This document shows, in pieces, positions 26,291-64,000 of a DNA stretch of 64,000 nt. Source of the DNA: Octopus vulgaris. Lineage: Eukaryota. A program made the translations under genes and the position numbers. How positions within the stretch are numbered: position 1 is the stretch's first letter; each line of letters begins with the position of its first letter. The notes beneath the pieces are model-generated. The model saw only the letters and a list, made by a program, of their open reading frames with translations. It was not told the origin of the DNA and made no database searches. The DNA lies in the NCBI GenBank assembly GCA_951406725.2, contig OX597835.1, forward strand, positions 14,198,001 through 14,262,000. The letters are read 5' to 3'.

Positions 26291-26307
26291 TCACCATATA
26301 GTGCCTT
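26291..26307 (+). other. Target/TSD sequence TCACCATATAGTGCCTT (repeated at 31548, 36683, 41938, 47208)
   Basis: Identical 17-mer at both ends of the array and at every A-A junction. Confidence 0.92.
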
Positions 26308-27894: not shown

Positions 27895-27902
27895 GGTAAG
27901 TG

Positions 27903-30900
27903 ATGAACTACATTTGTGTTGGTTGTTTAAATGTGCGCGGCCTGGGATCAAGCGGGAAGCAAGGTCGCTTCCTTAATGATATCAGGTCGCGCAATTTGGA
28001 TGTTATTGTTGCTACAGAAACCCGGTTAAAGGGGCCAAGAGATCTACTCCCACTGTTTGACGGCTACGAGAGTTTTTTCTCTCCTGGCAGTCCTGCAGGC
28101 GGGAGTGGGGTGTTGGTCCTACTAAAAAGAAACCGGGTTTTTGAGAAAAAGTTAATTTTTTCAGACCCAGAAGGTAGGCTGGTCGTCATGGATTTGACGT
28201 TCAGTAACGGTAAAGTTATCAGACTGGTTGCAATTTACGCACCCTGCAATGGGCAAAGTGATTATTATCGCGATCTAGAGAACTTTCTCGGTACTTCGCA
28301 TTCAATAGTTGTGCTAGGAGACTTTAACACAATTTGCAAAGCGGATGTAGATTGTGTTGGCTCGAATGATAGAAAAGGTAACACATGCTTCCTGGAACTG
28401 CTAAGCCGCTTTGAGCTAGCAGATCCTTATAGGTTGGAATTTCCGAACGCTCCATTGTGGACATGGTCAAACAGCGACGGATCTTCCAGGTCATACATAG
28501 ATAGAATTCTAATTAGAAAGGTAGACAGTAAAATAGCTAAGCGTCCACAGTTTTACCAGATCAGCTACAGTGATCATAAAATGGTCACTTGTAAGCTTGA
28601 CATAGATAAGGTTAGAAAGAGAGGATCCGGTTACTGGAAACTTAATACGTCCCTTTTGGCGATTAAGGAGTACAGAGACCGGATTAGGACCATAATTCAG
28701 AGGGCGCTGTCTGGTGCCATCATTAATAACAAATGGTGGTACGCCCTCAAACGAGCCATCAAGTTTGAGTCTATTAGATATAGCATAGGAGTAGTGTCTA
28801 GAGAGGCTAGAAGGGAAACTACTCTAGTTAAGGAATTAGAGGAAGCCATGAAAACTGGCTCTGCGGCTCAGGTGGCGTCCAAGAGACTGGTGTTAAACCA
28901 GCACCTCGAGGCCAAACACATGGGTTGCATTGTCAGGGCTAGAATCCGTCATATGGGATGTGAAGGAATCAACGCCGTGAGATGGGCCCGAGTGGTGGAA
29001 GCCCGGAATGGCAACGATGCCACGATTCGATCTTTGAAGAACCAACAAGGTGAGTTGATGGACGAACCCGAGGAGATGTGTGAGGCCTTTCAGGAGCGCT
29101 TCGCTCAGCTTTTCGGTGAGTGCGGCGGGCTGGATAGGAGGAGGGCCTTTACGGACCTACTCGACGGGCTGCCGCGCTTATCGGGGCGAGATGCGGAGGG
29201 CTGTGAAGGGCCAATCACGCCTGAGGAGGTGGTGGAGGCAATGGCGGACTGCGGCGCGGGCAAGGCGCCGGGTTTGGATGGTCTACCCTACGAGTTATAT
29301 AAGAATATGCCAGACTTGTTCGGGCACCTACTGGCGGAAGTCTATGCGAACTGGCAGCAGAACGGGTTGATACCCAGATCTGTGCGCCGGGGAGTAGTGA
29401 CTCTCGTCAGAAAGGACCCGAGCAAGGGGGAGTGCATTGATAATTTCAGGCCCATCACTCTGCTAAACACAGAGTTGAAGATTTTGGCCAAAGTGTTATC
29501 GAAAAGATTGGCGCGTGTCGCGGATGGTCTGATCGGGGAGGCACAGACATGTGCCGTTCCGGGCAGAACCATTCAGGATAATCTCCATCTAATGCGGTAC
29601 ACTATAGAGGGGTTTAATAGTGATTCTGGCAAGGGTGGGGCACTGGTCCATTTAGACCAATCCAAAGCTTTTGATAGGGTCGACCATCGTTACCTGGTGT
29701 CTGCTCTGGCACAGTTCGGGCTGGGCCTTGGCTTCCTCAGGTGGATTATCCAAATTTACGACAACATCGACTCGGTAGTTCGGGTGAACGGCTTCTTGTC
29801 GAAGCCGTTCAAAATCAAACGCTCGGTTCGTCAAGGGTGTCCGCTCTCCCCGCTTTTGTACGTGATGGCTCTTGAGCCATTACTGCGAAAACTGAGCGGC
29901 ATCCCGAGACAGCCAGGTAATGGAAAATCAGTGTCAGCGTACGCGGACGACATCACCATCATCGTGACCGAAATGGACCACCTATGTAAAGTAGGCAAGG
30001 CCATAGAGGATTACGAGACGGTGACAGGAGCAAAAGTTAATCGCGAAAAGTCAGTCGGCTTGCAACTCGGCACCTGGAGAGGCAAGTCGATGCCTCCTGA
30101 CAGCGTCGTGGGACGTTGGACGGAGGGTCCGATTAAACTGCTAGGGGTCTGGTTCGGTCCAGACCTCCAAATAGAGAAGAATTGGGGCGAGGTAACGAGC
30201 AAGGTGGCTGCAGTAGCCAAGACCTGGTCTAGGCGGTGGCTATCCTTGAAAGGGAGGGCGGAGGTGGCCAATGTGTTTATCGCATCGGTTATCATCTACC
30301 GCCTTTCCGTCGTTCCATGCCCTGATTCGTGGTTGACCAAGTTGGAAAGACAGCTCTTCTACTTCCTGTGGAAGGGCAGGAAACCACTTGTGAAACGCTC
30401 TACTTGCTGTCAACAACCGTTAAAGGGTGGGCTAGGGATGCCTTGGCTGATGATGCGCAGACATGCGCTGAGGTTAAGACATCTGTGGCTCTACCTGGAT
30501 GGTGAACGGGTGTGGTCTCCGTTAGCAAAACTGATGTTTCCCAAGTTCACTAGTTTCGGTGGATGGGAAACCTGGTTGAATCGTAGATCGAAACTCGGTA
30601 CATGGTATACGGAGTGTCGAAAGGCCCTCCTGCTATTCCGTCGCTCGGGCAACGCCTGCGGTGGGGGTTCCACCACATTCTTCTATAGAGGGTTGGTAGA
30701 GGCGGAATGTGAAGACACCTTGGGGGAAACCCTGGGTCTCGACGATAATCAGCTGGCTAGTCTGTTCCGACGTACGTTCGGGCCGAAGACTCTGGACAAC
30801 TTCCAGAAGTCTCTGGCATGGCAATGCTACAGAGGAGCTCTACCTGTTCGGGATAAACTCGCAAGGCACGGTGGCCAAGACAGTCCGATGTGTCCAAGAT

Positions 30901-31292: not shown

Positions 31293-31826
31293 ATGTAGAT
31301 CAAAACGAAACCAAAAGTATCAGTGGTGAGGCGGGGCTCGTGGGGTCCGAGCTGAACCCGCCCCCACTCCACCTGTAGTGTCTTCCGGTCTGTTTTTTCT
31401 CATTCGATTTTTATAATTTTTGCAATTTTTGTAAATTTTTGAAATTTTTAAACTCATACTTTTGTAACCTCATACGTGAATCTGACCCCACATCAGGTTG
31501 TATTGTCCCCTCTTTGTTGGCCCCTTGTGGGTAATAATAAAAGAATCTCACCATATAGTGCCTTCGTGAACATCGATACTCAAAAACGAAACGTGAGTTT
31601 TTTGTCTGAAATAGTGTTGTTGAAAGTTAGTAGTTTATTGTTGCTGTGTTAATATTGTTATTTTGTGTCTTTTTCAATAAGACGGTTAGTGGCCTTCGCG
31701 CGAAGGTTGTGTACGTAGTTCCCCCCCCGTGGGGGAATTATTGTGTGCCTTCGTGTACGAAACACATTCAAAAACAAAAAAAAAAAAAAAAAAAAAATAT
31801 TTTCTACTAACGGCTGCAAAGCCAGA

Positions 31827-33166: not shown

Positions 33167-36100
33167 ATGAACTACATTTGTGTTGGTTGTTTAAATGTGC
33201 GCGGCCTGGGATCAAGCGGGAAGCAAGGTCGCTTCCTTAATGATATCAGGTCGCGCAATTTGGATGTTATTGTTGCTACAGAAACCCGGTTAAAGGGGCC
33301 AAGAGATCTACTCCCACTGTTTGACGGCTACGAGAGTTTTTCTCTCCTGGCAGTCCTGCAGGCGGGAGTGGGGTGTTGGTCCTACTAAAAAGAAACCGGG
33401 TTTTTGAGAAAAAGTTAATTTTTTCAGACCCAGAAGGTAGGCTGGTCGTCATGGATTTGACGTTCAGTAACGGTAAAGTTATCAGACTGGTTGCAATTTA
33501 CGCACCCTGCAATGGGCAAAGTGATTATTATCGCGATCTAGAGAACTTTCTCGGTACTTCGCATTCAATAGTTGTGCTAGGAGACTTTAACACAATTTGC
33601 AAAGCGGATGTAGATTGTGTTGGCTCGAATGATAGAAAAGGTAACACATGCTTCCTGGAACTGCTAAGCCGCTTTGAGCTAGCAGATCCTTATAGGTTGG
33701 AATTTCCGAACGCTCCATTGTGGACATGGTCAAACAGCGACGGATCTTCCAGGTCATACATAGATAGAATTCTAATTAGAAAGGTAGACAGTAAAATAGC
33801 TAAGCGTCCACAGTTTTACCAGATCAGCTACAGTGATCATAAAATGGTCACTTGTAAGCTTGACATAGATAAGGTTAGAAAGAGAGGATCCGGTTACTGG
33901 AAACTTAATACGTCCCTTTTGGCGATTAAGGAGTACAGAGACCGGATTAGGACCATAATTCAGAGGGCGCTGTCTGGTGCCATCATTAATAACAAATGGT
34001 GGTACGCCCTCAAACGAGCCATCAAGTTTGAGTCTATTAGATATAGCATAGGAGTAGTGTCTAGAGAGGCTAGAAGGGAAACTACTCTAGTTAAGGAATT
34101 AGAGGAAGCCATGAAAACTGGCTCTGCGGCTCAGGTGGCGTCCAAGAGACTGGTGTTAAACCAGCACCTCGAGGCCAAACACATGGGTTGCATTGTCAGG
34201 GCTAGAATCCGTCATATGGGATGTGAAGGAATCAACGCCGTGAGATGGGCCCGAGTGGTGGAAGCCCGGAATGGGCACGATTCGATCGTTTGAAGAACCA
34301 ACAAGGTGAGTTTGGACGAACCCGAGGAGATGTGTGAGGCTCTTCAGGAGCGCTTCGCTCAGCTTTTCGGTGAGTGCGGCTTTGAACGGACCTACCAACA
34401 AGGTGATGGAGGGCTGTGAATGCCAATCATGCGCTGACGAGGTGGTGGAACAATGGCGGACTGCGGCGCGGGAGGAGATGTGGTCTACCCTACGAGTTAT
34501 ATAAGAATATGCCAGACTTGTTCGGTGGATAACTGGTTGAATCGTAGATCGAAACTGCAGCAGAAGGAGTGTCGAATCTGTGCGTTGCTATTCCGTCGCT
34601 CGAAGGCAACGCCTGCGGTGGAGGGTTCCACCATCATCTTCTATAGAGGGTTGGTAGAGGCGGAAAGTGAAGACACCTTGGGGGAAACGCGGGTCTCGAC
34701 GATAATCAGCTGGCTAGTCTGTTCCGACAGTACGTTCCGGGCAGAACCATTGGAAACGCATCTAATGCGGTACAACATAGAGGAGCTCTAGTGTTCGGGG
34801 TGGGCACTGGTCCAAGACCAATCCAAGATGCTGATAGGGAAACCGTCCCGCACGCTATTCGTTATTGTCTTCGGACGTTCTGAGGTGTGGGTTTTGCCGA
34901 ACAGCTGTTGTCAAGCACACGAAGAGTACAGCTGTCGAAGCCGTTCAAAATCAAACGCTCGGTTCGTCAAGGGTGTCCGCTCTCCCGCTTTTGTACGTGA
35001 TGGCTCTTGAGCCATTACTGCGAAAAGAGCGGCATCCCGAGACAGCCAGGTAATGGAAAATCAGTGTCAGCGTACATGGCGGACGACATCACCATCATCG
35101 TGACCGAAATGGACCACCTATGTAAAGTAGGCAAGGCCATAGAGGATTACGAGACGGTGACAGGAGCAAAAAGTTAATCGCGAAAAGTCAGTCGGCTTGC
35201 AACTCGGCACCTGGAGGCAAGTCGATGCCTCCTGACAGCGTCGTGGGACGTTGGACGGAGGGTCCGATTAAACTGCTAGGGGTCTGGTTCGGTCCAGACC
35301 TCCAAATAGAGAAGAATTGGGGCGAGGTAACGAGCAAGGTGGCTGCAGTAGCCAAGACCTGGTCTAGGCGGTGGCTATCCTTGAAAGGGAGGGCGGAGGT
35401 GGCCAATGTGTTTATCGCATCGGTTATCATCTACCGCCTTTCCGTCGTTCCATGCCCTGATTCGTGGTTGACCAAGTTGGAAAGACAGCTCTTCTACTTC
35501 CTGTGGAAGGGCAGGAAACCACTTGTGAAACGCTCTACTTGCTGTCAACAACCGTTAAAGGGTGGGCTAGGGATGCCTTGGCTGATGATGCGCAGACATG
35601 CGCTGAGGTTAAGACATCTGTGGCTCTACCTGGATGGTGAACGGGTGTGGTCTCCGTTAGCAAAACTGATGTTTCCCAAGTTCACTAGTTTCGGTGGATG
35701 GGAAACCTGGTTGAATCGTAGATCGAAACTCGGTACATGGTATACGGAGTGTCGAAAGGCCCTCCTGCTATTCCGTCGCTCGGGCAACGCCTGCGGTGGG
35801 GGTTCCACCACATTCTTCTATAGAGGGTTGGTAGAGGCGGAATGTGAAGACACCTTGGGGGAAACCCTGGGTCTCGACGATAATCAGCTGGCTAGTCTGT
35901 TCCGACGTACGTTCGGGCCGAAGACTCTGGACAACTTCCAGAAGTCTCTGGCATGGCAATGCTACAGAGGAGCTCTACCTGTTCGGGATAAACTCGCAAG
36001 GCACGGTGGCCAAGACAGTCCGATGTGTCCAAGATGCGGGCGGGATAGGGAAACCGTCCCGCACGCTATTGTTCATTGTTCGGACGTGTCTGAGGTGTGG

Positions 36101-36427
36101 GTTTATGCCGAACAGCTGTTGTCAAGCACACGAAGAGTACAGCTGTCGACTGAGTGTATTAAAAAAATTGACCCACCAGATTTCCTCGCGAAAGAAGGTA
36201 AGACTTGTTTTCTCGTTGTGGTAGCAATTGCGAAGGAGGTGATATGGAAGACGAGAATGAAAGGTATACGGTCAGGCAAGTTCATATCCGGCCCTGGGTT
36301 GATGAACTACTTCATCTACCACCTGAAAAGGAAGATAGGGCTGGAGAGAAAATGCCTGACTAAAAGAGTGTATGAAGAACGATGGAAGGATGTAGCACGG
36401 AAGTTGAGAATGGATGACACCATATAA
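33167..36427 (+). pseudogene. ORF2, disrupted (frameshift near 33340; scrambled RT region, probably an assembly artefact)
   Basis: Fragments 33164-33388, 33373-34293 and 35225-36427 match the intact ORF2. Confidence 0.8.
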
Positions 36428-36953
36428 ATGTAGATCAAAACGAAACCAAAAGTATCAGTGGTGAGGCGGGGCTCGTGGGGTCCGAGCTGAACCCGCCCCC
36501 ACTCCACCTGTAGTGTCTTCCGGTCTGTTTTTTCTCATTCGATTTTTATAATTTTTGCAATTTTTGTAAATTTTTGAAATTTTTAAACTCATACTTTTGT
36601 AACCTCATACGTGAATCTGACCCCACATCAGGTTGTATTGTCCCCTCTTTGTTGGCCCCTTGTGGGTAATAATAAAAGAATCTCACCATATAGTGCCTTC
36701 GTGAACATCGATACTCAAAAACGAAACGTGAGTTTTTTGTCTGAAATAGTGTTGTTGAAAGTTAGTAGTTTATTGTTGCTGTGTTAATATTGTTATTTTG
36801 TGTCTTTTCAATAAGACGGTTAGTGGCCTTCGCGCGAAGGTTGTGTACGTAGTTCCCCCCCGTGGGGGAATTATTGTGTGCCTTCGTGTACGAAACACAT
36901 TCAAAAACAAAAAAAAAAAAAAAATATTTTCTACTAACGGCTGCAAAGCCAGA

Positions 36954-38282
36954 ATGTCCTTGGAAGGCAGTGAATGCAAACTGGAAGGAAAATTCGAAAT
37001 GGATTTCCCCATTACCTATTCACCCATCTCAGGTGATGAAGAATCTCAAACCTCGGGTGAGAGAAGCACGCCGGCGGTGACACCGGAAAAAGAATCGGCG
37101 GTAACGCCAGAACAAAAGGCCCCAACAAAGAAGTTTGCGGAAGTTGTTGGACGCAAACAGAAAGATATAGATATAGAAAACCTAGAGAAATATGAAGACC
37201 TTCTAAAGAAAGAAGGAAATGAAATTGCAGTGAAAAAAGATATGGAAAAAAAGGAAGAGATAGAAAAGAAAAGAATTATATACAAGACATATAGCACGAC
37301 TACAAAAAGCATACAAAAAGTGGAAGAATGCAAAATAGAGGAGTGCCTGAAGACAATCCGAAAAGATATCACTTACATAAATAGAGGAAGACGGTTCGGA
37401 ACAGTAGAAGTGAGGTTCAGAACCGAAGAAATAGCTAAGAAGCTATCCACAGAACCTCAGAAAGCGGGAAATCTAGTCCTTCTACCCTTGTACAAAGGAA
37501 GAAGGACTTCAAAGATAGTAATGAGAAATATTCCCCCAGAGGCAGACGCCTCATGCCTGGTGGCGGCAGTGATGCTGGGCCTGAAAGAAAAAATCAACAT
37601 CCTCCAAGCTACAGTGGAGGAGGAGGGATTTTGGCAGGGCCAGATCATAACAATGGCTATACAAGCAGAGGCCCAGACTCTGGAAGAAATACCAGAGGTG
37701 CTGAGGCTAGATGAGGAGGAGCGAGTTCTAGTATTTGTAGAAGGAAGAAAACCGAGGTGCTTCGGCTGCGGAAAGAAGGGGCACGTGAGAGCGGAGTGTC
37801 AACCGAAACCGCAGGCAGAAGAACCGTCGGAGAAAGAAGAAACGGAGGAAAAAAGGAAACCAAAGAGGTGGAAAAAGCTGCAGAAAAGGAAAAAGAAAAC
37901 GAAAAGAGGAGGGGTGGTCTAAAGTTACCAAAAAAAAACGGAAAACTGAAACCACCCCTCAAGAAGAAGAAAACCTAAAGAAAAGGAAAGAGGTTACTTC
38001 TTCATTTATGGCCATTAAGGCTACTAACAACAGACTTGTCAATGTGTTGGCAGCCATGGCCAAGGTGGAACGTGTAAGGAAGATGAAAGACTTCATCATA
38101 TATAAAATAGGCCGGAAGGACTACAGGAGGATAAAATCCGAGTTCTTCCACGACGTGGGCCCTCTGAGACTGGACATGTCTCCATATCTATACGAGGGCC
38201 TACGTCGGACTCCCCCACGAGCCAAAGAAAAAAAAATGAAGAAGAAGGCGAAACCGCCGAAAAAGCCAAACTACCGATATAA
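36954..38282 (+). CDS. ORF1p with homopolymer frameshifts at ~37850-37910 and ~38230 (possible sequencing errors)
   Basis: Pieces 36798-37922 and 38008-38364 match copy 2. Confidence 0.7.
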
Positions 38283-41680: not shown

Positions 41681-42218
41681 ATGTAGATCAAAACGAAACC
41701 AAAAGTATCAGTGGTGAGGCGGGGCTCGTGGGGTCCGAGCTGAACCCGCCCCCACTCCACCTGTAGTGTCTTCCGGTCTGTTTTTTTTCTCATTCGATTT
41801 TTATAATTTTTGCAATTTTTGTAAATTTTTGAAATTTTTAAACTCATACTTTTGTAACCTCATACGTGAATCTGACCCCACATCAGGTTGTATTGTCCCC
41901 TCTTTGTTGGCCCCTTGTGGGTAATAATAAAAGAATCTCACCATATAGTGCCTTCGTGAACATCGATACTCAAAAACGAAACGTGAGTTTTTTTGTCTGA
42001 AATAGTGTTGTTGAATTGAAAGTTAGTAGTTTATTGTTGCTGTGTTAATATTGTTATTTTGTGTCTTTTCAATAAGACGGTTAGTGGCCTTCGCGCGAAG
42101 GTTGTGTACGTAGTTCCCCCCCGTGGGGGAATTATTGTGTGCCTTCGTGTACGAAACACATTCAAAAACAAAAAAAAAAAAAAAAAAAATATTTTCTACT
42201 AACGGCTGCAAAGCCAGA

Positions 42219-46951: not shown

Positions 46952-47241
46952 ATGTAGATCAAAACGAAACCAAAAGTATCAGTGGTGAGGCGGGGCTCGT
47001 GGGGTCCGAGCTGAACCCGCCCCCACTCCACCTGTAGTGTCTTCCGGTCTGTTTTTTCTCATTCGATTTTTATAATTTTTGCAATTTTTGTAAATTTTTG
47101 AAATTTTTAAACTCATACTTTTGTAACCTCATACGTGAATCTGACCCCACATCAGGTTGTATTGTCCCCTCTTTGTTGGCCCCTTGTGGGTAATAATAAA
47201 AGAATGGTCACCATATAGTGCCTTACTGCTTTCTGCTTTCT

Positions 47242-48976
47242 GCTCAGTCGTTTTTTTTTCGGCTCCTGAAAATTCGGTAAAAAAGAACAAAAAAGGTTGT
47301 TGTTGTTGTGGAAATTCTGAACGGCGTTGACGCGGTTTCGCGTTTCGCTCGTTCAGCGCGTTACACTTTTTCTGTTTTGGCGGCCGTTTTCGGTCTGTCA
47401 GACAGAAGGAAATGGACTATGAGTCTCTAACAGACTTGTCCACGACGGATGAGGAACTGGAACAGGCAATTGCAGTGAAGCTGATGGAGGAAAAGGCTGG
47501 AGTTTTTGAGTCTTTATCAGACTTGTCTAGTCTGAGGAGGAGCTAGAAATAGCAGTGAGGAAAATGGATCAGAAGCTGGGTTATACCTATGCCGGTGTAA
47601 CCAAGAAGGCGGAAGAGAAAGGGGTCGACATGGCCAAGTTGCCAAGTTACCAGAAATACATGAAGGGGGAAGGCGGTGAGGTGGAGCTGTCACCGACACC
47701 CAGGAGAAAAGAATGGTATGATAAGAGGACCATTGTTTACAGGGTGTTCGCAAACGAAAGGAAGAGGGTAGAAGTTGTAACCATGGAATGGATAGAGGAA
47801 GCCCTGCGAAGAACTGAGGAGGAAATAAATTTTCTGACTCGAGGATCCAAGTACGGGACCGTAGTTGTGCACTTTAAAAGTGAATCTGCAGCGAGGAAGA
47901 TGGCAGCGAAGGCGGTGAAGTCGGAAAAGGTAACACTGTTACCTACGTATTTAAACAGGAGGATTACACGAATAAGGGTGGAGGGAGTGCCACCAAACGT
48001 GGAGGCAGAATGGATTGTGGCGGCTGTGATCAGCGGCCACGAGGACGAAGTGGATATTCTCCATGCCTCGGTTAAGTCCGAGGGCTGGAGAGGCGTAACA
48101 GTGGAGCTGAACGTACAGGCAGAGACCGAGGTACTGGTGGACCTGACGGAAAGCATCAGACTGGGAGAAGTGATCATGAGAGTGTGGGTGGAGGGCAGGG
48201 CTCCACGTTGTTACAAGTGTGGCCTGAGGGGTCACATAAGAGCCTTCTGCCCTCCCCCAGGGAAAGAAATGGATCCCGAACCAGAGAGAGAGAAGCAGAA
48301 ACCAGAGGAGAAGGAAACAGAGGAAGAGAATACACAGAAATGGAAGGAAGCTGGAAGTAAGAGGAAGAGAAGAATATGTGGAAAAAAAGAAAATAATATG
48401 GAACTCCAATCTACCCCAAAACCTCCCACACCCTCTGAGTCCCACCCTATCCATGCAGACATTGAACCCACCCGCTCCCCCCAACAAGAAAACAAAAGAA
48501 AAAAAGAATACACACACACAAGAGATTGAAATCGAACCCAGGCCGTACATTTGTACTATGACTGAACAGAGGGAAGTTAAAAGTCTAATGGAAGAGTATA
48601 AACGGTATGATGTTGGAGAGACTAGGTATGCTGTGATTGAAAAGAAGAACATAGGTGAGTTTATGGGGAGGTGTGAAAGGGAGAATTGGGAGGTGAAAGA
48701 TATAAGAATGAGCGATGAATTCGTGGAAAATATGAATGAGTATTTCGGAGTAAGAATGGATATGGAATTTATTCGTATTGGCAAAGAACATTCAAGTGAC
48801 TATGAAAAACAAAGGACAGGTAAGTGATGCTGACGGACGGGGCCGTTGGTATCGCTTTCATTTTATCATTTTTTTCGTTTAACAATTCATGTTCATAAAG
48901 TTTAATTATAATGTTCTATGTCCCCATGTCTTTTGTTGTCCCCCTCTGTGTCGCCCCTTAGTGGGTAATAAAAAAT
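47242..48976 (+). mobile_element. ORF1-only non-autonomous Tx1-related element, family B copy 1
   Basis: 5'UTR, ORF1 homologue, short 3'UTR ending GCCCCTTAGTGGGTAATAAAAAA; no ORF2. Confidence 0.88.
47412..48827 (+). pseudogene. Family B ORF1, frameshifted (near 47530 and 48480-48510)
   Basis: Pieces 47555-48529 and 48378-48827 match the intact 49149-50564 ORF. Confidence 0.8.
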
Positions 48977-48978
48977 CA

Positions 48979-50716
48979 GCTCAGTCGTTTTTTTTTCGGC
49001 TCCTGAAAATTCGGTAAAAAAGAACAAAAAAGGTTGTTGTTGTTGTGGAAATTCTGAACGGCGTTGACGCGGTTTCGCGTTTCGCTCGTTCAGCGCGTTA
49101 CACTTTTTCTGTTTTGGCGGCCGTTTTCGGTCTGTCAGACAGAAGGAAATGGACTATGAGTCGCTAACAGACTTATCCACGACGGATGAGGAACTGGAAC
49201 AGGCAATTGCAGTGAAGCTGATGGAGGAAAAGGCTGGAGTTTTTGAGTCTTTATCAGACTTGCCTATGTCTGAGAAGGAGCTAGATATGGCAGCAAGGGA
49301 ATTGGAAAAGAAGCTGGGTTATACTTATGCCGGTGTAACCAAGAAGGCGGAAGAGAAAGGGGTCGACATGGCCAAGTTGCCAAGTTACCAGAAATACATG
49401 AAAAAGGAAAGCGGTGAGGTGGAACTATCACCGACACCCAGGAGAAAAGAATGGTATGATAAGAGGACCATTGTTTACAGGGTGTTCGCAAACGAAAGGA
49501 AGAGGGTAGAAGTTGTAACCATGGAATGGATACAGGAAGCCCTGCGAAGAACTGAGGAGGAAATAAATTTTCTGACTCGAGGATCCAAGTACGGGACCGT
49601 AGTTGTGCACTTTAAAAGTGAATCTGCAGCGAGGAAGATGGCAGCGAAGGCGGTGAAGTCGGAAAAGGTAACACTGTTACCTACGTATTTAAACAGGAGG
49701 ATTACACGAATAAGGGTGGAGGGAGTGCCACCAAACGTGGAGGCAGAATGGATTGTGGCGGCTGTGATCAGCGGCCACGAGGACGAAGTAGATATTCTCC
49801 ATGCCTCGGTTAAGTCCGAGGGCTGGAGAGGAGTAACAGTGGAGCTGAACGTACAGGCAGAGACCGAGGTACTGGTGGACCTGACGGAAAGCATCAGACT
49901 GGGAGAAGTGATCATGAGAGTGTGGGTGGAGGGCAGGGCTCCACGTTGTTACAAGTGTGGCCTGAGGGGTCACATAAGAGCCTTCTGCCCTCCAGGGAAA
50001 GAAATGGATCCCGAACCAGAGAGAGAGAAGCAGAAACCAGAGGAGAAGGAAACAGAGGAAGAGAATACACAGACATGGAAGGAAGCTGGAAGTAAGAGGA
50101 AGAGAAGAATATGTGGAAAAAAAGAAAATAATATGGAACTCCAATCTACCCCAAAACCTCCCACACCCTCTGAGTCCCACCCTATCCATGCAGACATTGA
50201 ACCCACCCGCTCCCCACCAACAAGAAAACAAAAGAAAAAAAAGAATACACACACACAAGAGATTGAAATCGAACCCAGGCCGTACATTTGTACTATGACT
50301 GAACAGAGGGAAGTTAAAAGTCTAATGGAAGAGTATAAACGGTATGATGTTGGAGAGACTAGGTATGCTGTGATTGAAAAAAAGAACATAGGTGAGTTTA
50401 TGGGGAGGTGTGAAAAGGAAAATTGGGAGGTGAAAGATATAAGAATGAGCGATGAATTCGTGGAAAATATGAATGAGTATTTCGGAGTAAGAATGGATAT
50501 GGAATTTATTCATATTGGCAAAGAACATTCAAGTGACTATGAAAAACAAAGGACAGGTAAGTGATGCTGACGGACGGGGCCGTTGGTGTCGCTTTCATTT
50601 TATCATTTTTTCGGTTAACACTTCATGTTCATAAAATTTAATTATAATGTTCTGTGTCCCCATGTTTTGTTATGTCCGGCACTCTTCGTAGCCCCTTAGT
50701 GGGTAATAAAGAAATA
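48979..50716 (+). mobile_element. Family B copy 2
   Basis: Same 5' end GCTCAGTCGTTTTT; 3' end GCCCCTTAGTGGGTAATAAAGAAATA followed by TSD GCCTTACTGCTTTCTGCT (50717-50734 = 47220-47237). Confidence 0.9.
49149..50564 (+). CDS. Family B ORF1p, intact, 471 aa (CCHC knuckle), divergent homologue of family A ORF1p
   Basis: RGSKYGTVVVHF ~ RGRRFGTVEVRF; VWVEGRAPRCYKCGLRGHIRAFC ~ VFVEGRKPRCFGCGKKGHVRAEC. Confidence 0.88.
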   Translation: MDYESLTDLSTTDEELEQAIAVKLMEEKAGVFESLSDLPMSEKELDMAARELEKKLGYTYAGVTKKAEEKGVDMAKLPSYQKYMKKESGEVELSPTPRRKEWYDKRTIVYRVFANERKRVEVVTMEWIQEALRRTEEEINFLTRGSKYGTVVVHFKSESAARKMAAKAVKSEKVTLLPTYLNRRITRIRVEGVPPNVEAEWIVAAVISGHEDEVDILHASVKSEGWRGVTVELNVQAETEVLVDLTESIRLGEVIMRVWVEGRAPRCYKCGLRGHIRAFCPPGKEMDPEPEREKQKPEEKETEEENTQTWKEAGSKRKRRICGKKENNMELQSTPKPPTPSESHPIHADIEPTRSPPTRKQKKKKNTHTQEIEIEPRPYICTMTEQREVKSLMEEYKRYDVGETRYAVIEKKNIGEFMGRCEKENWEVKDIRMSDEFVENMNEYFGVRMDMEFIHIGKEHSSDYEKQRTGK

Positions 50717-50884
50717 GCCTTACTGCTTTCTGCTGGATTTTACCTCGAGAAAGGAACCCTGAGGAAGGAGGGCTGAATTTCGAATACTTCGTACAACAAA
50801 CGGCTGCAGGTTAGGAAAAAAATTTAATCGCCTCTTTCAATTTAGGTTTTCATTTTTCATGTTTTTATTTGTATTTCATTGTTT

Positions 50885-51454
50885 ATATTGTGTCCGGATA
50901 TTGTTCCGATTTTTAAAGGAAAGTACATGGTCACTAAATACTTGCCATTACATTTTTAATGAACCAAATCTGAACCATTTCGTTGCACAATACGTCTCCA
51001 TCTTACACTTTACCTTAAAAATACCCTCTTCCCAGAATTGGGGTGGTTTCAAGGAAAATAATTCATCAAGGTGTCTTTTTACGTCATCTAAGGAATTGAA
51101 ATTTTCACCATTAAGACTATTCTGCAGAGACCTGAATAAGTGGAAATCCGAAGGAGTAATATCTGGTGAATATGGAGGGTGGGGTAAGTCACCCCAGCCA
51201 AGCTGCAGCAATTTTTGTCTGGTTCCCAAAGCATCAAATGCCGATAATGAATTTTTCTCATCTTTTAATTTAAAGGGTTACAGAATTAACACAGGTTATT
51301 GGAACATAAACCTTCTTCCACGAAAAGATAGATTAAATTGTTGTGCTCCAAATGGAGGTGTAGTCAAATCCTATTTTATGGACTCAAACATGTTCTAAAA
51401 TAAGTCGAAAGATAAGCTACTATAAATCTGCAAGAACTTTCCGGACAACCCAAT
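50885..51454 (-). mobile_element. Internally deleted mariner relic
   Basis: ORF 50948-51229 with HPPYSPDITPSDFHLF; TIR-like GAACTTTCCGGACAACCCAATA at ~51433-51454. Confidence 0.8.
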
Positions 51455-51852
51455 ATTTCTATATTTTTATCATGAAATTCTTAATATAAATATGTGGATA
51501 TTTGTATGGAATAATACCTCATGTGCTACATCTGAATTTTCTTGTCTGAATGTTTTAAGACAAATATCCGAAATTTTTATCGTATACCACATTTTATTAA
51601 TACTTAGCTCATATACGGAGACAAAAATGTTGTACTATATACTGCAGGTTATCTCCATTAAAATTATATTTAGCATTAGAATTCTTCAAGTAGTATAAAA
51701 ATGGTTATTGTCTGCATCATTCGAAAGCGAAATAAATTTTGCATAAGGTGTAAAAGATAAAAAATAATTTGTATGGTGTTAGTAACAAAATATTTTGTAA
51801 GAAATAGAACTTTTATCGTCTGTCTTAAATATATTTTCGCCAGTGTATATAT

Positions 51853-52950
51853 CTCAGGTCATCCCATAAGTTCTGTCTGAATTTTGGATAAAGAATACAA
51901 GTGATCAAATGTTATATTTAATTGAAAGTTAATCATCAATGTACTTTCCTAATTATCTATGACTTACCTCCATCTATTTACAAGCTTTTTAATCCCATCA
52001 ACGTAAAACTCTTTTGGTTTGAAAGCGAAGAACTCTGAAATGTCAGGTTCGACCTCCCCCTGGCTTGCGAAAGTTGTATCCCCCTACTAATTCTGTAAAC
52101 TATGAAACAAATGGTATCCTGAAGGAGTAAGGTCGGGAGAATAAGTTGGATGAAGAAATTTTTCCAAACCGACCCCTTCGATCTTCTGTGATGTGATCTT
52201 TGCATGTGGGGTTGCGCTTGTCCTGATGAAACATCACTCGTTTTCGACTCACTAAAGCGGCTCTTTTTTCCTTCAAAGCTTGGTTCAAACGCTCTAATTG
52301 CTGACAGTAGACTTGAGCATTGATTGTTGCATTAGGTGGTAACAATATAAAGTGAATTACGCCTTTGCAATCGCACCAGATAGAGAGTAGAACCTTTTTC
52401 CCATGAAGTTCCCTTCTCGGTTGTGGTTGAGAATTTTCCCTTTTACCAAGCCACTGTTTACGACGTCTAACATTTCGATAGAAAATCCATTTTTCATCAC
52501 AAGTCTATCGAAAAAGGGTGAAATGAGTTTGCGAGAATGGAGAGAAGAGCAGATGCCAACTCGGGATTTGCGGTTGCTTTCGGACAATACATAAGGCACC
52601 TATTTTCCAAGTTTAGGAACCTTTCCACGTTGTTGAAGATGACGATGAACTGTTGTATGGTTTGAAGTAAGCTTTATTGCCAATTCTTCAACTGATAATG
52701 ACGGATTTTCTTCAAGTAATGCCTCAAGGAGCTTGTCAAACTCAACTGGACATCCTGTTCGATATTCATCTTCAATTTTGCAGACGATCTCCTGCAAGTT
52801 CTTTCATTCGAGCACTTTGCCATAAACTGAGTGTATGTTTCGAGTCACTTCGGCATCAGAGTTACCTTTATTGTACTCATAAAGAATTATATGTGCCTTA
52901 AATGCTCCTTGGATACTTCCATGTTGAAAGGGTTTTAATCAAAGCAATTT
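51853..52950 (-). mobile_element. Degenerate mariner transposon (transposase ATG at ~52922; multiple frameshifts and stops)
   Basis: MEVSKEHLRH.., TGCPVEFD..LLEENPSLSVEELA..VHRHL..KLGK, TINAQVYCQQLERL..VMFHQD. Confidence 0.85.
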
Positions 52951-52951
52951 T

Positions 52952-54272
52952 AGGGTGTCCACGAAGTCTGGGTTTATGGAATAAAATCATAACATAAGAA
53001 ATAATAATTTTCCTTTTTTACTTTTGTTTAAATTAAATAAAAAAAATACTTTACTTTTCTAAATTTATTTGTTATTTTTTCTACAGATGATCGAATGATG
53101 GCTCTGTCTAAAGAAGAAAGAATCCCAGATCGAATGATGAATCTGTCTAAAGAAGAAAGAATCGAGTTAGTATTATTAAGTGGACGAGAGGGATGGTCTT
53201 ATCGCAAAATTGCGGAAGAATTTAATCTTCCACACCCTTGTAGGCAACCTATTTATTTTACTGCCGTCAGGAAATTGATCAAGAAATTTAAAGAAACAGG
53301 CAGTGTTTCGGATAAACCCCGTTCCGGGCGACCAAAGACTTCAGATGAAACTAAAGAGGCTGTCGAGGCTAAAGTTTCTGCTAGCTAGCCCCCAAAAATC
53401 ACTTCGTCGGACATCTACGGTGTTAGGTGTTCCAAAACCAACCATCCACAAAATGCTGGTTGAGGAAAAGTTTCATCGATACAACCTACAGATATTGCAT
53501 CACTTAAATGAAGACGATCCTGATAGACGAATGTAGACGTGCGAATGGTTTTCAGATAAATTGGATGAAAATATCAATTTTACGAAAAACTTTGTGTTGT
53601 TCAGTGACAAAGCTACGTTTTATGTAAATGGTGAGGTCAACAGACAGAATCTTCTATACTGGTCTCGAGGTAATCCACATTGGCTGGATCTATCCAAACA
53701 GCAAGACAGCAAAAAGGTGATGGTGTGGTGTGGTTTTTGGAAAGCTCATGTTCTAGGACCCTTCTTCATTGAACATGTAACGGATGAGACTTATGCAAAT
53801 ATATTGAGAGACAAATTAATATCTTAAATTGAGCGCCTAGGCGAGGACCTTCCGAATTGGTTTCAGCAGGATGAGGCCCCTACCCATTTTGCCACAACTG
53901 TTAGAGATTGATTTAATGACACTTTTCCTCCTCACTAGATTGGAAGAAGGGGTCATATGGAATGGTCCCCTCGTTCACCAGACCTTTCTCCCCTTGATTT
54001 CTTTTTCTGGGGTATGTTGAAAGAGAAAGTTTACTCAATAAAGATTACAGATTTAAAACACACGAGAGAACGCATTACCAGTCAGTGTGCTTAAATTGAT
54101 GGCAATATAGACTTATTTAATCAAGCTCACCTGAATTTTGCAAGGCGCATCAAGTTATGCATTGAAAATGATGGAAATCACTTTGAAAATATTATTTATT
54201 ATAATTAAAAAAATTGTTTTGTTTTAAAAGTATGTGTTAATTCCCATGTACGCAGACTTTGTGGACACCGTC
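52952..54272 (+). mobile_element. Degenerate Tc1/mariner element, rosa/DD41D-like
   Basis: TIRs AGGGTGTCCACGAAGTCTGGGTTTATGG / CCATGTACGCAGACTTTGTGGACACCGT; KFKETGSV..RSGRP, FSD, FQQD-x41-D within WSPRSPDLSPLDFFFWG; in-frame stops. Confidence 0.85.
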
Positions 54273-55048
54273 TATTATTTTGTAAAACAATATTGAATTA
54301 GTTTAAACGTACACAAATGCATAAAAATAATTTTTAATTGAATTAGACATTTGCAAATACTATTAAATTTCATTCAACTCTAAAATTGGGCAGAACTGAC
54401 TGGATGACTTGATATATGTAATCTATGATATTCTAGTAAGTTTCAAGTTTATAACACCTTGATATCTCATTTTATATGCCTAAGACGTTTATTTTCTATT
54501 CTGGTTTTTATATATTTCTATACATTATATTTGTATCTATAATTTATTTTAAGCCGAAACGTAATACGATCCTTGTACGAACGAAAGAACAAGAATGTCC
54601 TCTGGAACGTTTATCTTCCACCGGCGTTTGTAATCGATGGTGACATGTGCGATGATTTTGCGACTATCTTATATTTTACAGAGAAATTGGAAGCCCCGAA
54701 TGTAAGTCAGCGCTTTATGCATAATTCAATATTCACAGTTCTCTATTTCTAACAGAAATTCTGTCCTCAATAACTATAGATCTATTTCTAAATGTATTTC
54801 TTTTTCTTTTCCTTCATGCACTCCCGTCTGTCTCTTGACAAAGCTTTCTTTCTCCAGCGTTCACCACGTCACCTCGTTAGGGTTAAACAGCCCTTAGCGA
54901 AAATTTTGACTGTCCTGAATTGTTAGGAGCTTTGACGTTCCACGTATCTCGATTTTATCTAATTTGGTTTGGGGGAGCAATTGCCAACATCTGAGGAAGA
55001 GTTGTTTGGTTTTTTTTTATATTCTGCCTTCACGCTATAGTTCTCTAT
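53989..55048. repeat. Segmental duplication, copy 2 (matches 1-1115); homology resumes at ~56644-56895 (= ~3391-3635)
   Basis: Direct sequence comparison. Confidence 0.92.
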
Positions 55049-56883: not shown

Positions 56884-59800
56884 TTGTATATATGCAAATT
56901 GTATATAGGTATGTAAATATATGCAAATTGTATATAGGTATGTAAATATATGCAAATTGTATATAGGTATGTAAATATATGCAAATTGTATATAGGTATG
57001 TAAATATATGCAAATTGTATATAGGTATGTAAATACATGCAAATTGTATATAGGTATGTAAATACATGCAAATTGTATATAGGTATGTAAATACATGCAA
57101 ATTGTATATAGGTATGTAAACACATGCAAATTGTATATAGGTATGTAAATACATGCAAATTGTATACAGGTATGTAACATATGCAAATTGCATATAGGAA
57201 TGTAAATATATGCAAATTGCATATAGGAATGTAAATATATGCAAATTGCTTATAGGAATGTAAATATATACAAATTGCATATAGGTATGTAAATATATGC
57301 AAATTGCATATAGGTATGTAAATATATACAAATTGCATATATGTATGTAAATATATACAAACTGCATATATGTATGTAAATATATACAAACTGCATATAT
57401 ATATGTAAATATATACAAACCGCATTTATGCATGTAAATATAAACAAACCGTATATATGCATGTAACTATATACAAATTATATATATGCATACAAATATA
57501 AACAAATTATATATATGCATACAAATTATATATATGTATATAAACGTATACAAATTATATATATGTATATAAACGTATACAAATTATATATATGTATATG
57601 AACGTACACAAATTATATACATGTATATGAACGTACACAAATTATATACATGTATATAAACGTACACAAATTATATATATGTATATAAACGTATACAAAT
57701 TGTATATATGTATATAAACGTATACAAATTATATATTTGTATATAAATATATACAAAATATATATAATTATATATATAATTTGTATATATTTATATACAT
57801 ATATATAAATATATACAAATTATATATATGTATATGAATATATACAAATTATATATATGTATATGAATATATACAAATTATATATATGTATATGAATATA
57901 TACTATATATATGTATATGAATATATACAAATTATATATATGTATATGAATATATATACAAATTATATATATGTATATGAAGATATACAAATTACATATA
58001 TGTATATGAAGATATACAAATTACATATATGTATATGAAGATATACGAATTACATATATGTATATGAAAATATGCAAATTATATATATGTATATGAAGAT
58101 ATACAAATTATATATATGCATACAAATTATATATATGTATATATGTATACAAATTATATATATGTATATAAATGTATACAAATTATATATATGTATATAA
58201 ACGTATACAAATTATATATACGTATATAAACGTACACAAATTGTATATTTGTATATAAATATATACAAAATATATAGAATTATAAATATAATTAGTATAT
58301 ATTTATATACATATATATAAATATATAAAAATTATATATTTGTATATAAATGTATACAAATTATATATATGTATATGAATATATACAAATTATACATATG
58401 TATATGAATATATACAAATTATACATATGTATATGAATATATACAATATATATATATGTATATGAATATATACAAATTATATATATGTATATGTATATAT
58501 ACAAATTATATATATGTATATGTATATATACAAATTATATATATGAATATGAATATATACAAATTATATATATGTATATGAATATATACAAATTATATAT
58601 ATGTATATGAATATATACAAATTATATATATGTATATGAATATATACAAATTATATATATGTATATGAATATATACAAATTATATATATGTATATGAATA
58701 TATACAAATTATATATATGTATATGAATATATACAAATTATATATATGTATATGAATATATACAAATTATATATATGTATATGAAAATATACAAATTATA
58801 TATATGTATATGAATATATACAAATTATATATATGTATATGAATATATACAAATTATATATATGTATATGAATATATACAAATTATATATATGTATATGA
58901 ATATATACAAATTATATATATGTATATGAATATATACAATTTATATATATGTATATGAATATATACAATTTATATATATGTATATGAATATATACAAATT
59001 ATATATATGTATATGAATATATACAAATTATATATATGTATATGAATATATACAAATTATATATATGTATATGAATATATACAAATTATATATATGTATA
59101 TGAATATATACAAATTATATATATGTATATGAATATATACAAATTATATATATGTATATGAATATATACAAATTATATATATGTATATGAATATATACAA
59201 ATTATATATATGTATATGAATATATACAAATTATATATATGTATATGAATATATACAAATTATATATATGTATATGAATATATACAAATTATATATATGT
59301 ATATGAATATATACAAATTATATATATGTATATGAATATATACAAATTATATATATGTATATGAATATATACAAATTATATATATGTATATGAATATATA
59401 CAAATTATATATATGTATATGAATATATACAAATTATATATATGTATATGAATATATACAAATTATATATATGTATATGAATATATACAAATTATATATA
59501 TGTATATGAATATATACAAATTATATATATGTATATGAATATATACAAATTATATATATGTATATGAATATATACAAATTATATATATGTATATGAATAT
59601 ATACAAATTATATATATGTATATGAATATATACAAATTATATATATGTATATGAATATATACAAATTATATATATGTATATGAATATATACAAATTATAT
59701 ATATGTATATGAATATATACAAATTATATATATGTATATGAATATATACAAATTATATATATGTATATGAATATATACAAATTATATATATGTATATGAA

Positions 59801-62800
59801 TATATACAAATTATATATATGTATATGAATATATACAAATTATATATATGTATATGAATATATACAAATTATATATATGTATATGAATATATACAAATTA
59901 TATATATGTATATGAATATATACAAATTATATATATGTATATGAATATATACAAATTATATATATGTATATGAATATATACAAATTATATATATGTATAT
60001 GAATATATACAAATTATATATATGTATATGAATATATACAAATTATATATATGTATATGAATATATACAAATTATATATATGTATATGAATATATACAAA
60101 TTATATATATGTATATGAATATATACAAATTATATATATGTATATGAATATATACAAATTATATATATGTATATGAATATATACAAATTATATATATGTA
60201 TATGAATATATACAAATTATATATATGTATATGAATATATACAAATTATATATATGTATATGAATATATACAAATTATATATATGTATATGAATATATAC
60301 AAATTATATATATGTATATGAATATATACAAATTATATATATGTATATGAATATATACAAATTATATATATGTATATGAATATATACAAATTATATATAT
60401 GTATATGAATATATACAAATTATATATATGTATATGAATATATACAAATTATATATATGTATATGAATATATACAAATTATATATATGTATATGAATATA
60501 TACAAATTATATATATGTATATGAATATATACAAATTATATATATGTATATGAATATATACAAATTATATATATGTATATGAATATATACAAATTATATA
60601 TATGTATATGAATATATACAAATTATATATATGTATATGAATATATACAAATTATATATATGTATATGAATATATACAAATTATATATATGTATATGAAT
60701 ATATACAAATTATATATATGTATATGAATATATACAAATTATATATATGTATATGAATATATACAAATTATATATATGTATATGAATATATACAAATTAT
60801 ATATATGTATATGAATATATACAAATTATATATATGTATATGAATATATACAAATTATATATATGTATATGAATATATACAAATTATATATATGTATATG
60901 AATATATACAAATTATATATATGTATATGAATATATACAAATTATATATATGTATATGAATATATACAAATTATATATATGTATATGAATATATACAAAT
61001 TATATATATGTATATGAATATATACAAATTATATATATGTATATGAATATATACAAATTATATATATGTATATGAATATATACAAATTATATATATGTAT
61101 ATGAATATATACAAATTATATATATGTATATGAATATATACAAATTATATATATGTATATGAATATATACAAATTATATATATGTATATGAATATATACA
61201 AATTATATATATGTATATGAATATATACAAATTATATATATGTATATGAATATATACAAATTATATATATGTATATGAATATATACAAATTATATATATG
61301 TATATGAATATATACAAATTATATATATGTATATGAATATATACAAATTATATATATGTATATGAATATATACAAATTATATATATGTATATGAATATAT
61401 ACAAATTATATATATGTATATGAATATATACAAATTATATATATGTATATGAATATATACAAATTATATATATGTATATGAATATATACAAATTATATAT
61501 ATGTATATGAATATATACAAATTATATATATGTATATGAATATATACAAATTATATATATGTATATGAATATATACAAATTATATATATGTATATGAATA
61601 TATACAAATTATATATATGTATATGAATATATACAAATTATATATATGTATATGAATATATACAAATTATATATATGTATATGAATATATACAAATTATA
61701 TATATGTATATGAATATATACAAATTATATATATGTATATGAATATATACAAATTATATATATGTATATGAATATATACAAATTATATATATGTATATGA
61801 ATATATACAAATTATATATATGTATATGAATATATACAAATTATATATATGTATATGAATATATACAAATTATATATATGTATATGAATATATACAAATT
61901 ATATATATGTATATGAATATATACAAATTATATATATGTATATGAATATATACAAATTATATATATGTATATGAATATATACAAATTATATATATGTATA
62001 TGAATATATACAAATTATATATATGTATATGAATATATACAAATTATATATATGTATATGAATATATACAAATTATATATATGTATATGAATATATACAA
62101 ATTATATATATGTATATGAATATATACAAATTATATATATGTATATGAATATATACAAATTATATATATGTATATGAATATATACAAATTATATATATGT
62201 ATATGAATATATACAAATTATATATATGTATATGAATATATACAAATTATATATATGTATATGAATATATACAAATTATATATATGTATATGAATATATA
62301 CAAATTATATATATGTATATGAATATATACAAATTATATATATGTATATGAATATATACAAATTATATATATGTATATGAATATATACAAATTATATATA
62401 TGTATATGAATATATACAAATTATATATATGTATATGAATATATACAAATTATATATATGTATATGAATATATACAAATTATATATATGTATATGAATAT
62501 ATACAAATTATATATATGTATATGAATATATACAAATTATATATATGTATATGAATATATACAAATTATATATATGTATATGAATATATACAAATTATAT
62601 ATATGTATATGAATATATACAAATTATATATATGTATATGAATATATACAAATTATATATATGTATATGAATATATACAAATTATATATATGTATATGAA
62701 TATATACAAATTATATATATGTATATGAATATATACAAATTATATATATGTATATGAATATATACAAATTATATATATGTATATGAATATATACAAATTA

Positions 62801-64000
62801 TATATATGTATATGAATATATACAAATTATATATATGTATATGAATATATACAAATTATATATATGTATATGAATATATACAAATTATATATATGTATAT
62901 GAATATATACAAATTATATATATGTATATGAATATATACAAATTATATATATGTATATGAATATATACAAATTATATATATGTATATGAATATATACAAA
63001 TTATATATATGTATATGAATATATACAAATTATATATATGTATATGAATATATACAAATTATATATATGTATATGAATATATACAAATTATATATATGTA
63101 TATGAATATATACAAATTATATATATGTATATGAATATATACAAATTATATATATGTATATGAATATATACAAATTATATATATGTATATGAATATATAC
63201 AAATTATATATATGTATATGAATATATACAAATTACATATAAGTATATGAATATATACAAATTACATATAAGTATATGAATATATACAAATTTTATATAT
63301 GTATATGAATATATACAGATTATTTATATGTATATGTAGATATACAAATTACATATATGTATATCAATATATACAAATTTTATATATGTATATGAATATA
63401 TACAAATTATATATATGTATATGAATATATACAAATTATATATATGAATATATACAAATTATATATATGAATATATACAAATTATATATATGAATATATA
63501 CAAATTATATATATGAATATATACAAATTATATATATGAATATATACAAATTATATATATGAATATATACAAATTATATATATGAATATATACAAATTAT
63601 ATATATGAATATATACAAATTATATATATGAATATATACAAATTATATATATGAATATATACAAATTATATATATGAATATATACAAATTATATATATGA
63701 ATATATACAAATTATATATATGAATATATACAAATTATATATATGAATATATACAAATTATATATATGAATATATACAAATTATATATATGAATATATAC
63801 AAATTATATATATGAATATATACAAATTATATATATGAATATATACAAATTATATATATGAATATATACAAATTATATATATGAATATATACAAATTATA
63901 TATATGAATATATACAAATTATATATATGAATATATACAAATTATATATATGAATATATACAAATTATATATATGAATATATACAAATTATATATATGAA
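56884..64000. repeat. AT-rich 29-bp satellite (homogeneous ~58550-63230) switching to a 23-bp deletion variant after ~63425
   Basis: Unit TATGAATATATACAAATTATATATATGTA; the terminal unit lacks 6 bp; divergent 29-mers at 56884-57450. Confidence 0.97.

Follow-up and report, generated by a model that had tools for sequence, protein, structure and literature searches.

A dispersed ORF1-only retrotransposon family in Octopus that probably uses ORF2p supplied in trans

An ORF1-only pair beside a Tx1-like array

The window analyzed here is a 64,000-nucleotide stretch of Octopus vulgaris DNA (assembly GCA_951406725.2, contig OX597835.1, positions 14,198,001 to 14,262,000, forward strand). At 47237-50716 it carries two ORF1-only units, B1 and B2, which hold the first open reading frame (ORF1) of a long interspersed nuclear element (LINE) and lack the second (ORF2); directly upstream lie four full-length Tx1-like LINEs, A1-A4. 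We find that B is a multicopy, dispersed ORF1-only family and not a one-off deletion. The features that the argument draws on, including the target site duplication (TSD) and the untranslated regions (UTRs), are listed below in window positions.

26286-47224, plus strand: A1-A4, four full-length Tx1-like LINEs in an array, with a target piece of 22-23 nt bounding each; candidate helper family
47220-47236, plus strand: left copy of the TSD, 17 bp, exact match to 50717-50733
47237-48975, plus strand: B1, ORF1-only unit, ORF broken; its 5' end echoes the last 7 nt of the target
47412-48827, plus strand: B1 ORF1, with three 1-nt deletions (near 47529, 48480 and 48498) and a 3-nt in-frame insertion (48254-48256)
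48976-50716, plus strand: B2, ORF1-only unit, abutting the B1 tail without a TSD
48976-49148, plus strand: B2 5' UTR, no relation to the A 5' UTR
49149-50564, plus strand: B2 ORF1, intact, 471 aa
49155-49208 and 49242-49295 (span 49155-49295), plus strand: two N-terminal helical repeats, period 29 aa
49320-50003, plus strand: conserved core, predicted tandem RRM fold plus CCHC zinc knuckle, Tx1/ZCCHC3-type ORF1 (AlphaFold, Foldseek, atlas)
50555-50566, plus strand: AGGTAAGTGATG, 12 nt, at the ORF1 end of B2; presumed consensus 5' splice site over a TGA-ATG stop-start
50565-50716, plus strand: B2 3' UTR, its final ~55 nt (50655-50709) homologous to the A 3' tail
50717-50733, plus strand: right copy of the TSD, 17 bp, exact match to 47220-47236
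50717-50837, no strand assigned: right part of the target, a multicopy sequence with summed depth far above low-copy contigs in sequencing runs X1, X11 and X19

The two units are identical at 1688 of 1739 aligned columns (97%), and each spans ~1.74 kb with a 5' UTR of ~170 nt and a 3' UTR of 152 nt. This is the anatomy given in a preliminary description of the locus (~1.74-kb units with a 5' UTR, a 471-aa ORF1 and a ~150-nt 3' UTR), but the ORF is intact in B2 alone. With deletions counted relative to B2, the B1 reading frame stops after 44 codons; two of the three deletions sit within homopolymer runs, where an error of assembly could be the cause.

The same description saw no ORF2 remnant in B, and six ORF2 queries run against 47200-52100 agree: none was found, the best match (E 0.085) falling inside a B 5' UTR. 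We considered a coding ORF2 vestige behind the stop-start and rejected it, as the mini-ORF there is in a different frame in B1 and B2. The B2 5' UTR aligns with the A 5' UTR at a local score of 22, within the range of shuffles (maximum 25 of 200). The combination of ORF1 present and ORF2 absent is also seen in a bridging contig of run X2, described below.

B is a multicopy family

Copies of B elsewhere were sought in gene models and in sequencing runs. Among the fetched proteins, 22 hold the B ORF1 end. Seventeen O. vulgaris gene models, drawn from 28 proteins looked up plus their cluster members, carry at least 37 residues of it, and these lie on 13 distinct chromosome-scale contigs (41 to 226 Mb). 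The ORF1 end is 86-98% identical to that of B in single-segment records, and P0049, on one of the 13 contigs, holds a 58% relic. For A ORF1 and B ORF1 alike, the relatives that have names come from Octopus, in most cases from O. vulgaris; an O. sinensis model (P0056) contains the B N-terminal repeat at 75%.

Part of B is present in 20 of the 24 listed sequencing runs (8 studies, three organism labels), and 12 runs contain at least half of its words. Four runs (X1, X2, X11 and X19) were compared with 48930-52100 at 85% likeness, and the resulting tables hold the best-supported rows: 40 of 216 substitutions, 12 of 25 insertions or deletions, 15 of 45 joints and 24 of 1489 loose ends. Run X1 may be the assembly's own sample and is not independent. 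A 165-nt B contig of X11, with one difference, has a depth of 4653 versus 7-46 for the other seven listed contigs, and a 266-nt B contig of X19 has a depth of 1472 versus 3-23 for the other seven. Depth over B remains high up to the 5' end, and B is multicopy in the three DNA-like runs (X1, X11 and X19). As a rough inference from depth, which is not a copy number, B may comprise hundreds of near-identical copies.

The reads also join ORF1 to what follows it. An 800-nt contig of X2 (no. 26, with four differences and three gaps) runs from ORF1 through the B 3' UTR into the target (49938-50734) and carries the 3-nt insertion absent from B2. Two diverged contigs, X1 no. 4 (89%) and X2 no. 27 (85%), extend 20-25 nt past the stop as B-type 3' UTR, an overlap that falls short of the 31-nt bridging rule. 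No loose ends at the ORF1 stop appear among the best 24 of 1489 and, as weak evidence, the summed depth in X1, X11 and X19 shows no fall between ORF1 and the 3' UTR. An autonomous partner with a B-like ORF1 plus ORF2, which the preliminary description proposed to look for, did not turn up in a weak search of 2198 longer candidate proteins. No B loci with flanks were found in metagenome or viral contigs, and no RNA runs were found among the holders of B on record; that X2 is RNA is a guess, and it was not used as evidence of transcription. Another contig of X2 (no. 28, at 50638-50713) has the B 3' tail and differs upstream, which points to a further family or subfamily having that tail.

The window taken alone, with two copies of which one is broken, and with an odd replaced segment in neighboring A2, could suggest a one-off local deletion or an assembly artefact, an outcome that had been named in advance as fatal to the ORF1-only family. 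We regard this explanation as already refuted and give it practically no credence: gene models place B on 13 contigs, 20 of the 24 listed runs from 8 studies contain part of it (12 of them at least half the words), and contigs bridge ORF1 to the 3' UTR.

The B ORF1 protein is predicted to be of Tx1 type

The B ORF1 protein (ORF1p) begins with the tandem motif that had been noticed at first reading, the two units being identical at 8 of 18 residues and 34 of 54 nt. This region varies in length among B copies through in-frame changes (joints 49154>49218 and 49205>49310 in run X11). In an AlphaFold model built on a 79-sequence alignment, residues 71-280 form a block with a predicted local distance difference test score (pLDDT) of 90-98, and the model is weak elsewhere; the C-terminal domain (372-471) has low pLDDT and no match in the atlas. 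The best Foldseek matches to the model are tandem RRMs (E about 3e-5), and the atlas matches are CCHC and ZCCHC3-type RNA-binding clusters at 0.90-0.92, a score that is uncalibrated for partial proteins. A CCHC knuckle is conserved in a protein alignment, though Pfam zf-CCHC scores it below the cut-off (E 0.067). As modeled, B ORF1p folds as a tandem RRM plus CCHC knuckle, the ORF1 type that the available part of PMC5203782 associates with the Tx1 clade.

B ORF1p and A ORF1p are 36% identical over 218 aa (E 1e-44). At the nucleotide level no similarity between the two ORF1s was found, the local score of 32 comparing with a shuffle mean of 26.8 and a maximum of 39 of 200. The earlier statement that the two ORF1s align only as proteins stands, their DNA scoring within shuffles; it missed a shared 55-nt tail and AGGTAAGTGATG, which lie outside ORF1 proper.

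A tree built by a quick method from 67 of 136 hits (those covering at least 115 core residues, plus B) places B ORF1 as sister to O. sinensis P0014, with a Shimodaira-Hasegawa-like approximate likelihood ratio (SH-aLRT) support of 99, and groups A apart with P0021 and P0023 (98). P0014 is 51-54% identical to B ORF1, and the distance between B and A is about equal to that of either from many other octopus-type ORF1s. Because B ORF1 belongs to another lineage in this tree, B is not derived from A; with the 36% identity and the lack of an ORF1 DNA alignment, the placement rules out such a derivation, in keeping with the preliminary view that B is no recent deletion product of A. The same view called B long-lived, and this great age is not borne out: since B ORF1 is sister to P0014 and not to A, the 36% identity dates the split of the A and B lineages, not the loss of ORF2.

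B ORF1 looks to be under constraint, judging by how its copies differ. B1 and B2 ORF1 differ by 11 synonymous and 16 non-synonymous changes (pN/pS 0.38 for this one pair; Fisher p 0.016). Twelve of the 16 non-synonymous changes fall within the first 89 codons, and the core has four synonymous versus one non-synonymous. The ORF1 length changes among those listed are +3, -3, net -54 and net -96, all four in frame, which has a chance of 1 in 81 if one third are in frame at random; two more ORF1 joints with inserts of undefined content were omitted from this count. All five length changes listed in the B UTRs are of 1 nt each. Six of the 16 ORF1 variants listed from the read-contig comparison are synonymous, a set that overlaps the B1/B2 changes and is not independent of them. 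Neutral evolution of ORF1, which had been put forward as a refutation, is not what these figures point to.

A different origin would make B the young product of a deletion in a hypothetical autonomous family whose ORF1 is B-like; B would then be mobilized by this parent and not by A, and the constraint on ORF1 would be inherited and not a need of B itself. The grouping of B ORF1 with P0014 and not A would fit, as would the high similarity of most B copies, an insertion point that differs from that of A (see below), and the 13 recently active L1-Tx1 families in O. vulgaris that appear in the accessible text of PMC13282606 (Table 1). We nevertheless consider this origin quite unlikely. Copies already 11-15% diverged have a B-type 3' UTR behind the stop (by the 20-25-nt overlap only), length variants among present copies are in frame, and, more weakly, neither a depth drop into the 3' UTR nor a fused ORF1-ORF2 protein was seen in the runs and candidates named above.

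B inserts near, but not at, the A site

One exact 17-bp TSD encloses the B1-B2 pair, and the junction between B1 and B2 holds neither a TSD nor other target sequence. The TSD previously ascribed to the units is therefore present, but as one around the dimer and not one per unit. The A 3' junction lies at 47201/47202 and the B TSD starts at 47220; with tail-target microhomology allowed for, the B insertion point is 11-18 nt downstream of the A site.

A second 5' junction is provided by X2 contig 25, in which 988 of 989 nt agree with B2. At the loose 5' end of this contig, 27 of 30 letters are those of the B1 junction; the other three all lie in the target, and the B 5' end again shows the 7-nt echo seen in B1. 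As a near-identical element is here attached to a target copy that is about a tenth different, the contig points to a separate insertion event at that point and, less probably, to an allele of the window locus. Both B 5' junctions seen with non-element DNA lie at the same target point, and B looks site-specific from these sequences. The proposal that B keeps its target specificity holds for these two junctions, although they are offset from the A nick.

The DNA to the right of the site (50732-50837) is multicopy in the three DNA-like runs. The target gave no tRNA and no Rfam match at the gathering score, with chance-level matches only by E-value. No inverted repeats were found between the flanks, no second target copy in the window, and no match to the empty-site sequence among the fetched proteins. 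According to the available part of PMC4494074, Tx1 families often target other repeats. On the minus strand at 50708-50803, a polypyrimidine tract and a CAG acceptor-like site are followed by a short open frame across the insertion site, a possible exon of the target element.

Multimers of B are not limited to the pair in the window. Run X1 contains a TSD-less B-B joint (50716>48990) at a depth of 389, gene model P0078 passes from a B tail straight into a B 5' UTR, and three B ORF1 ends are present in each of the gene models P0001 and P0002. The simplest reading of the B1-B2 dimer would be a single insertion with an end-to-end template jump, an activity reportedly described for the R2 enzyme; sequential insertion with loss of the target, or copying of a read-through RNA, would also fit.

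Such TSD-less head-to-tail arrays at several places, together with a multicopy target, might also arise without retrotransposition in trans, if B had been multiplied passively, through tandem amplification or along with the repeat that hosts it. We consider passive spread very improbable. The second junction combines a difference of 0.1% in the element with differences at 3 of 30 nt in the target, a pattern not expected of joint duplication, and the exact 17-bp TSD, the A-rich tail and the 3% distance between B1 and B2 argue in the same direction.

A and B share a 3' tail and a stop-start motif

The final 55 nt of A4 were compared with B1 and B2 and gave an anchored score above all 3000 dinucleotide shuffles in four of four tests, with or without the last five letters. 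LINE partners and their short interspersed nuclear elements (SINEs) usually share such 3' tails, as stated in the part of PMC4494074 available, and for this reason the shared tail is the strongest hint at use of an A-type ORF2p by B.

A second shared sequence, AGGTAAGTGATG, occurs six times in the window, once at each ORF1 end of the four A and two B copies, and nowhere else. In all four A copies it follows the ORF1 stop and contains the ORF2 start (the ORF1/ORF2 boundary); because it is placed after the stop, it is not kept in A for coding ORF1 protein. Its length is unremarkable, as A4 and B2 have seven chance matches of 11-13 nt, and its weight comes from the matched position alone. We take the motif to be a consensus 5' splice site (U1 consensus). 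Of 17 gene models that exit B at this motif, 16 resume with a G-initial codon, the 58% relic included, as a phase-1 splice at this donor requires. Such models show that the predicted donor is conserved and attracts annotation; use in the cell is not implied. The B ORF1 end and its splice donor account for a set of spurious-looking octopus gene models. The TGA-ATG stop-start itself resembles the UAAUG coupling of SART1 in the accessible text of PMC2881922.

A CFAP65-like model of O. vulgaris (P0003) ends in the B ORF1 C-terminus, with a B copy in or behind that gene.

The A array as candidate helper

Self-comparison of the window gives four 5.26-kb A copies head to tail, stacked four times at one site. 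They encode a 443-aa ORF1 and a 1129-aa ORF2 with APE endonuclease, reverse transcriptase (RT) and zf-RVT domains, and the closest named match is 'Transposon TX1 uncharacterized 149 kDa protein' (31%). By these domains and this match, A appears to be a Tx1-like LINE. A1, A3 and A4 differ by 8-16 substitutions in 5.2 kb.

Whether A itself is the helper of B we judge to be about even: the shared 3' tail favors it, the offset insertion point does not, and the 13 recently active L1-Tx1 families cited above (PMC13282606, Table 1, available part) belong to the same species. ORF2 is intact in A1, A3 and A4. ORF1 is intact in A2 and A4, and is frameshifted in A-rich stretches in A1 (26564-27976) and A3 (36954-37922). 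In A2 (34521-34938), a segment of ~420 nt stands in place of ~520 nt of ORF2; it shows 79% similarity to sequence further along ORF2 (35690-36149) and is either from a related Tx1 family via template switch or a misassembly.

The target pieces 5' of the A copies are identical (26286-26307, 31543-31564, 36678-36699 and 41933-41954), and the piece after A4 (47202-47224) differs from them, with GGT for CT; the A 5' end may carry target-like sequence, or the array may have grown by unequal crossover. The A 5' junction motif recurs inside the A 5' UTR (26301, 26486 and equivalents in A2-A4), so some of what looks like an A TSD may be 5' microhomology.

A model for B mobilization

Taken together, these observations make it probable that B is a recently active non-autonomous non-LTR (lacking long terminal repeats) family of Octopus that supplies ORF1p in cis, obtains ORF2p in trans through its tail, and inserts by target priming. 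B retains a 5' UTR, an ORF1 of RRM-RRM-CCHC type, the former stop-start motif between ORF1 and ORF2 and an A-homologous 3' tail, and lies in the multicopy target that also holds A. Its ancestor would be a Tx1-type LINE, of a lineage distinct from A, that lost ORF2. B RNA would encode its own ORF1p, which would coat that RNA in cis, and the shared 3' tail would recruit ORF2p, either from A or from a related family that has this tail. The recruited endonuclease would then nick the target repeat, and target-primed reverse transcription would insert B, creating a TSD of ~17 bp at 11-18 nt from the A site. In a weaker step, the dimer may be the product of a single insertion: after copying B2, the reverse transcriptase would have switched to the 3' end of another B RNA.

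Several points weigh against this model. The ORF is broken in B1 and intact in one unit of two. The nick position of B is not that of A, and site preference is judged from just two junctions with non-element DNA on the 5' side. No common stem-loop was found in the shared tail, the folds of A4, B1 and B2 disagreeing with one another. The value of pN/pS comes from 27 changes, and constraint may partly be inherited from an autonomous ancestor. Contig depth does not give copy number, the read-contig tables are confined to best-supported rows, and the gene models show the B ORF1 end but not the DNA behind it. A low-copy, or more distant, autonomous B-like family may exist.

A bolder version, which we hold to be rather unlikely, would make B a long-lived ORF1-only parasite in a site-specific Tx1 clade that captures, via the conserved 3' tail, the ORF2p of a different family, A, whose ORF1p is 36% identical. 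Its own RNA ends or ORF1p would shift the insertion point by 11-18 nt, so that one target would serve both; template jumping would give HeT-A-like multimers, and the presumed U1-type 5' splice site at the ORF1 end would be an RNA control signal shared with A.

Comparison with known ORF1-only and Tx1-clade elements

The parasitic ORF1-only strategy is already known, and B presents it in what appears to be a site-specific Tx1-type lineage. ORF1-only LINEs have come from L1 (HAL1, in mammals), Jockey (HeT-A) and CR1 (Ag-Sponge) (available parts of PMC5786205 and PMC5753468; PMC13756887, likewise in part, is a further source). The preliminary description derived HAL1 elements from L1/Tx1; the L1 origin in mammals is sound, but the available parts of the first two sources do not back a Tx1 origin. 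HAL1 encodes ORF1p only and needs ORF2p in trans, and its kept ORF1 coding is taken as a sign that ORF1p is required in cis (accessible text of PMC5753468 and PMC3627910).

B resembles HAL1 in having ORF1 and no ORF2 and in forming a multicopy dispersed family. It differs in that HAL1 comes from mammalian L1, whereas the relatives of B are octopus proteins and its ORF1 is of the Tx1-type RRM-RRM-CCHC form; moreover B occurs in a mollusc, shares its 3' tail with a LINE, appears to have a sequence-specific target and forms TSD-less multimers. As a mammalian HAL1, B fails on origin (octopus relatives and a tandem RRM plus CCHC ORF1p).

HeT-A forms head-to-tail arrays. HeT-A and Ag-Sponge are, like B, bipartite non-autonomous LINEs with an ORF1 (PMC5786205, available part), but belong to clades other than that of B. 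HeT-A inserts at chromosome ends and is endonuclease-independent (PMC2881922, accessible text), whereas B is interstitial with a TSD. We rejected a HeT-A-like telomeric inserter on this interstitial position, the 17-bp TSD and the one B segment in the CFAP65 gene model.

SINEU-3 and Tx1-Mar of crocodilians offer another likeness: a non-autonomous element, a repeat target common to it and a Tx1 family, and tandem stacking (available part of PMC4494074). Yet SINEU-3 codes for no protein, stems from an snRNA and has a TSD enclosed within its tandems, whereas B encodes ORF1p and its dimer has no inner TSD. B is not a SINE, having a 471-aa ORF and no tRNA or Rfam match.

A shares APE, RT and zf-RVT domains and repeated insertion at one site with the Tx1-clade LINEs (Tx1L, Keno, Kibi, Koshi and Tx1-Mar), and B shares their ORF1 type (RRM plus CCHC); B differs in having no ORF2, and the target matches no Rfam family. 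No ORF1-only Tx1-clade family was found in the literature searched, a search that lay outside Repbase and the PMC13282606 repeat library; the available part of that O. vulgaris repeat paper gives L1-Tx1 totals only, and B may possibly be named already in a repeat library. As far as this literature goes, B extends the ORF1-only strategy to the Tx1 clade and to molluscs.

Why ORF1p has to be produced in cis is a question for which ORF1-only LINEs offer a natural test. Those of mammals are old, as far as the available parts of the sources above describe them, whereas B is young, with an intact copy beside intact ORF2 copies and a defined target. Because young, intact B lies beside intact A ORF2 and the target, the need for ORF1p in cis, the use of ORF2p in trans and the choice of target could be assayed with natural sequences.

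Other features of the window

To the right of the array lie relics at 50948-51277, 52100-52504 and 53086-54200 that have very high copy number in the runs compared; by motif, we take them to be Mariner/Tc1-type transposase. A 1.1-kb stretch occurs twice at 93% identity (1-1115 and 53989-55048), with simple repeats after each copy. Long pentamer and TACA-type arrays occupy 1116-3305 and 56885-64000, and a gap of 100 N lies near 25255-25355.

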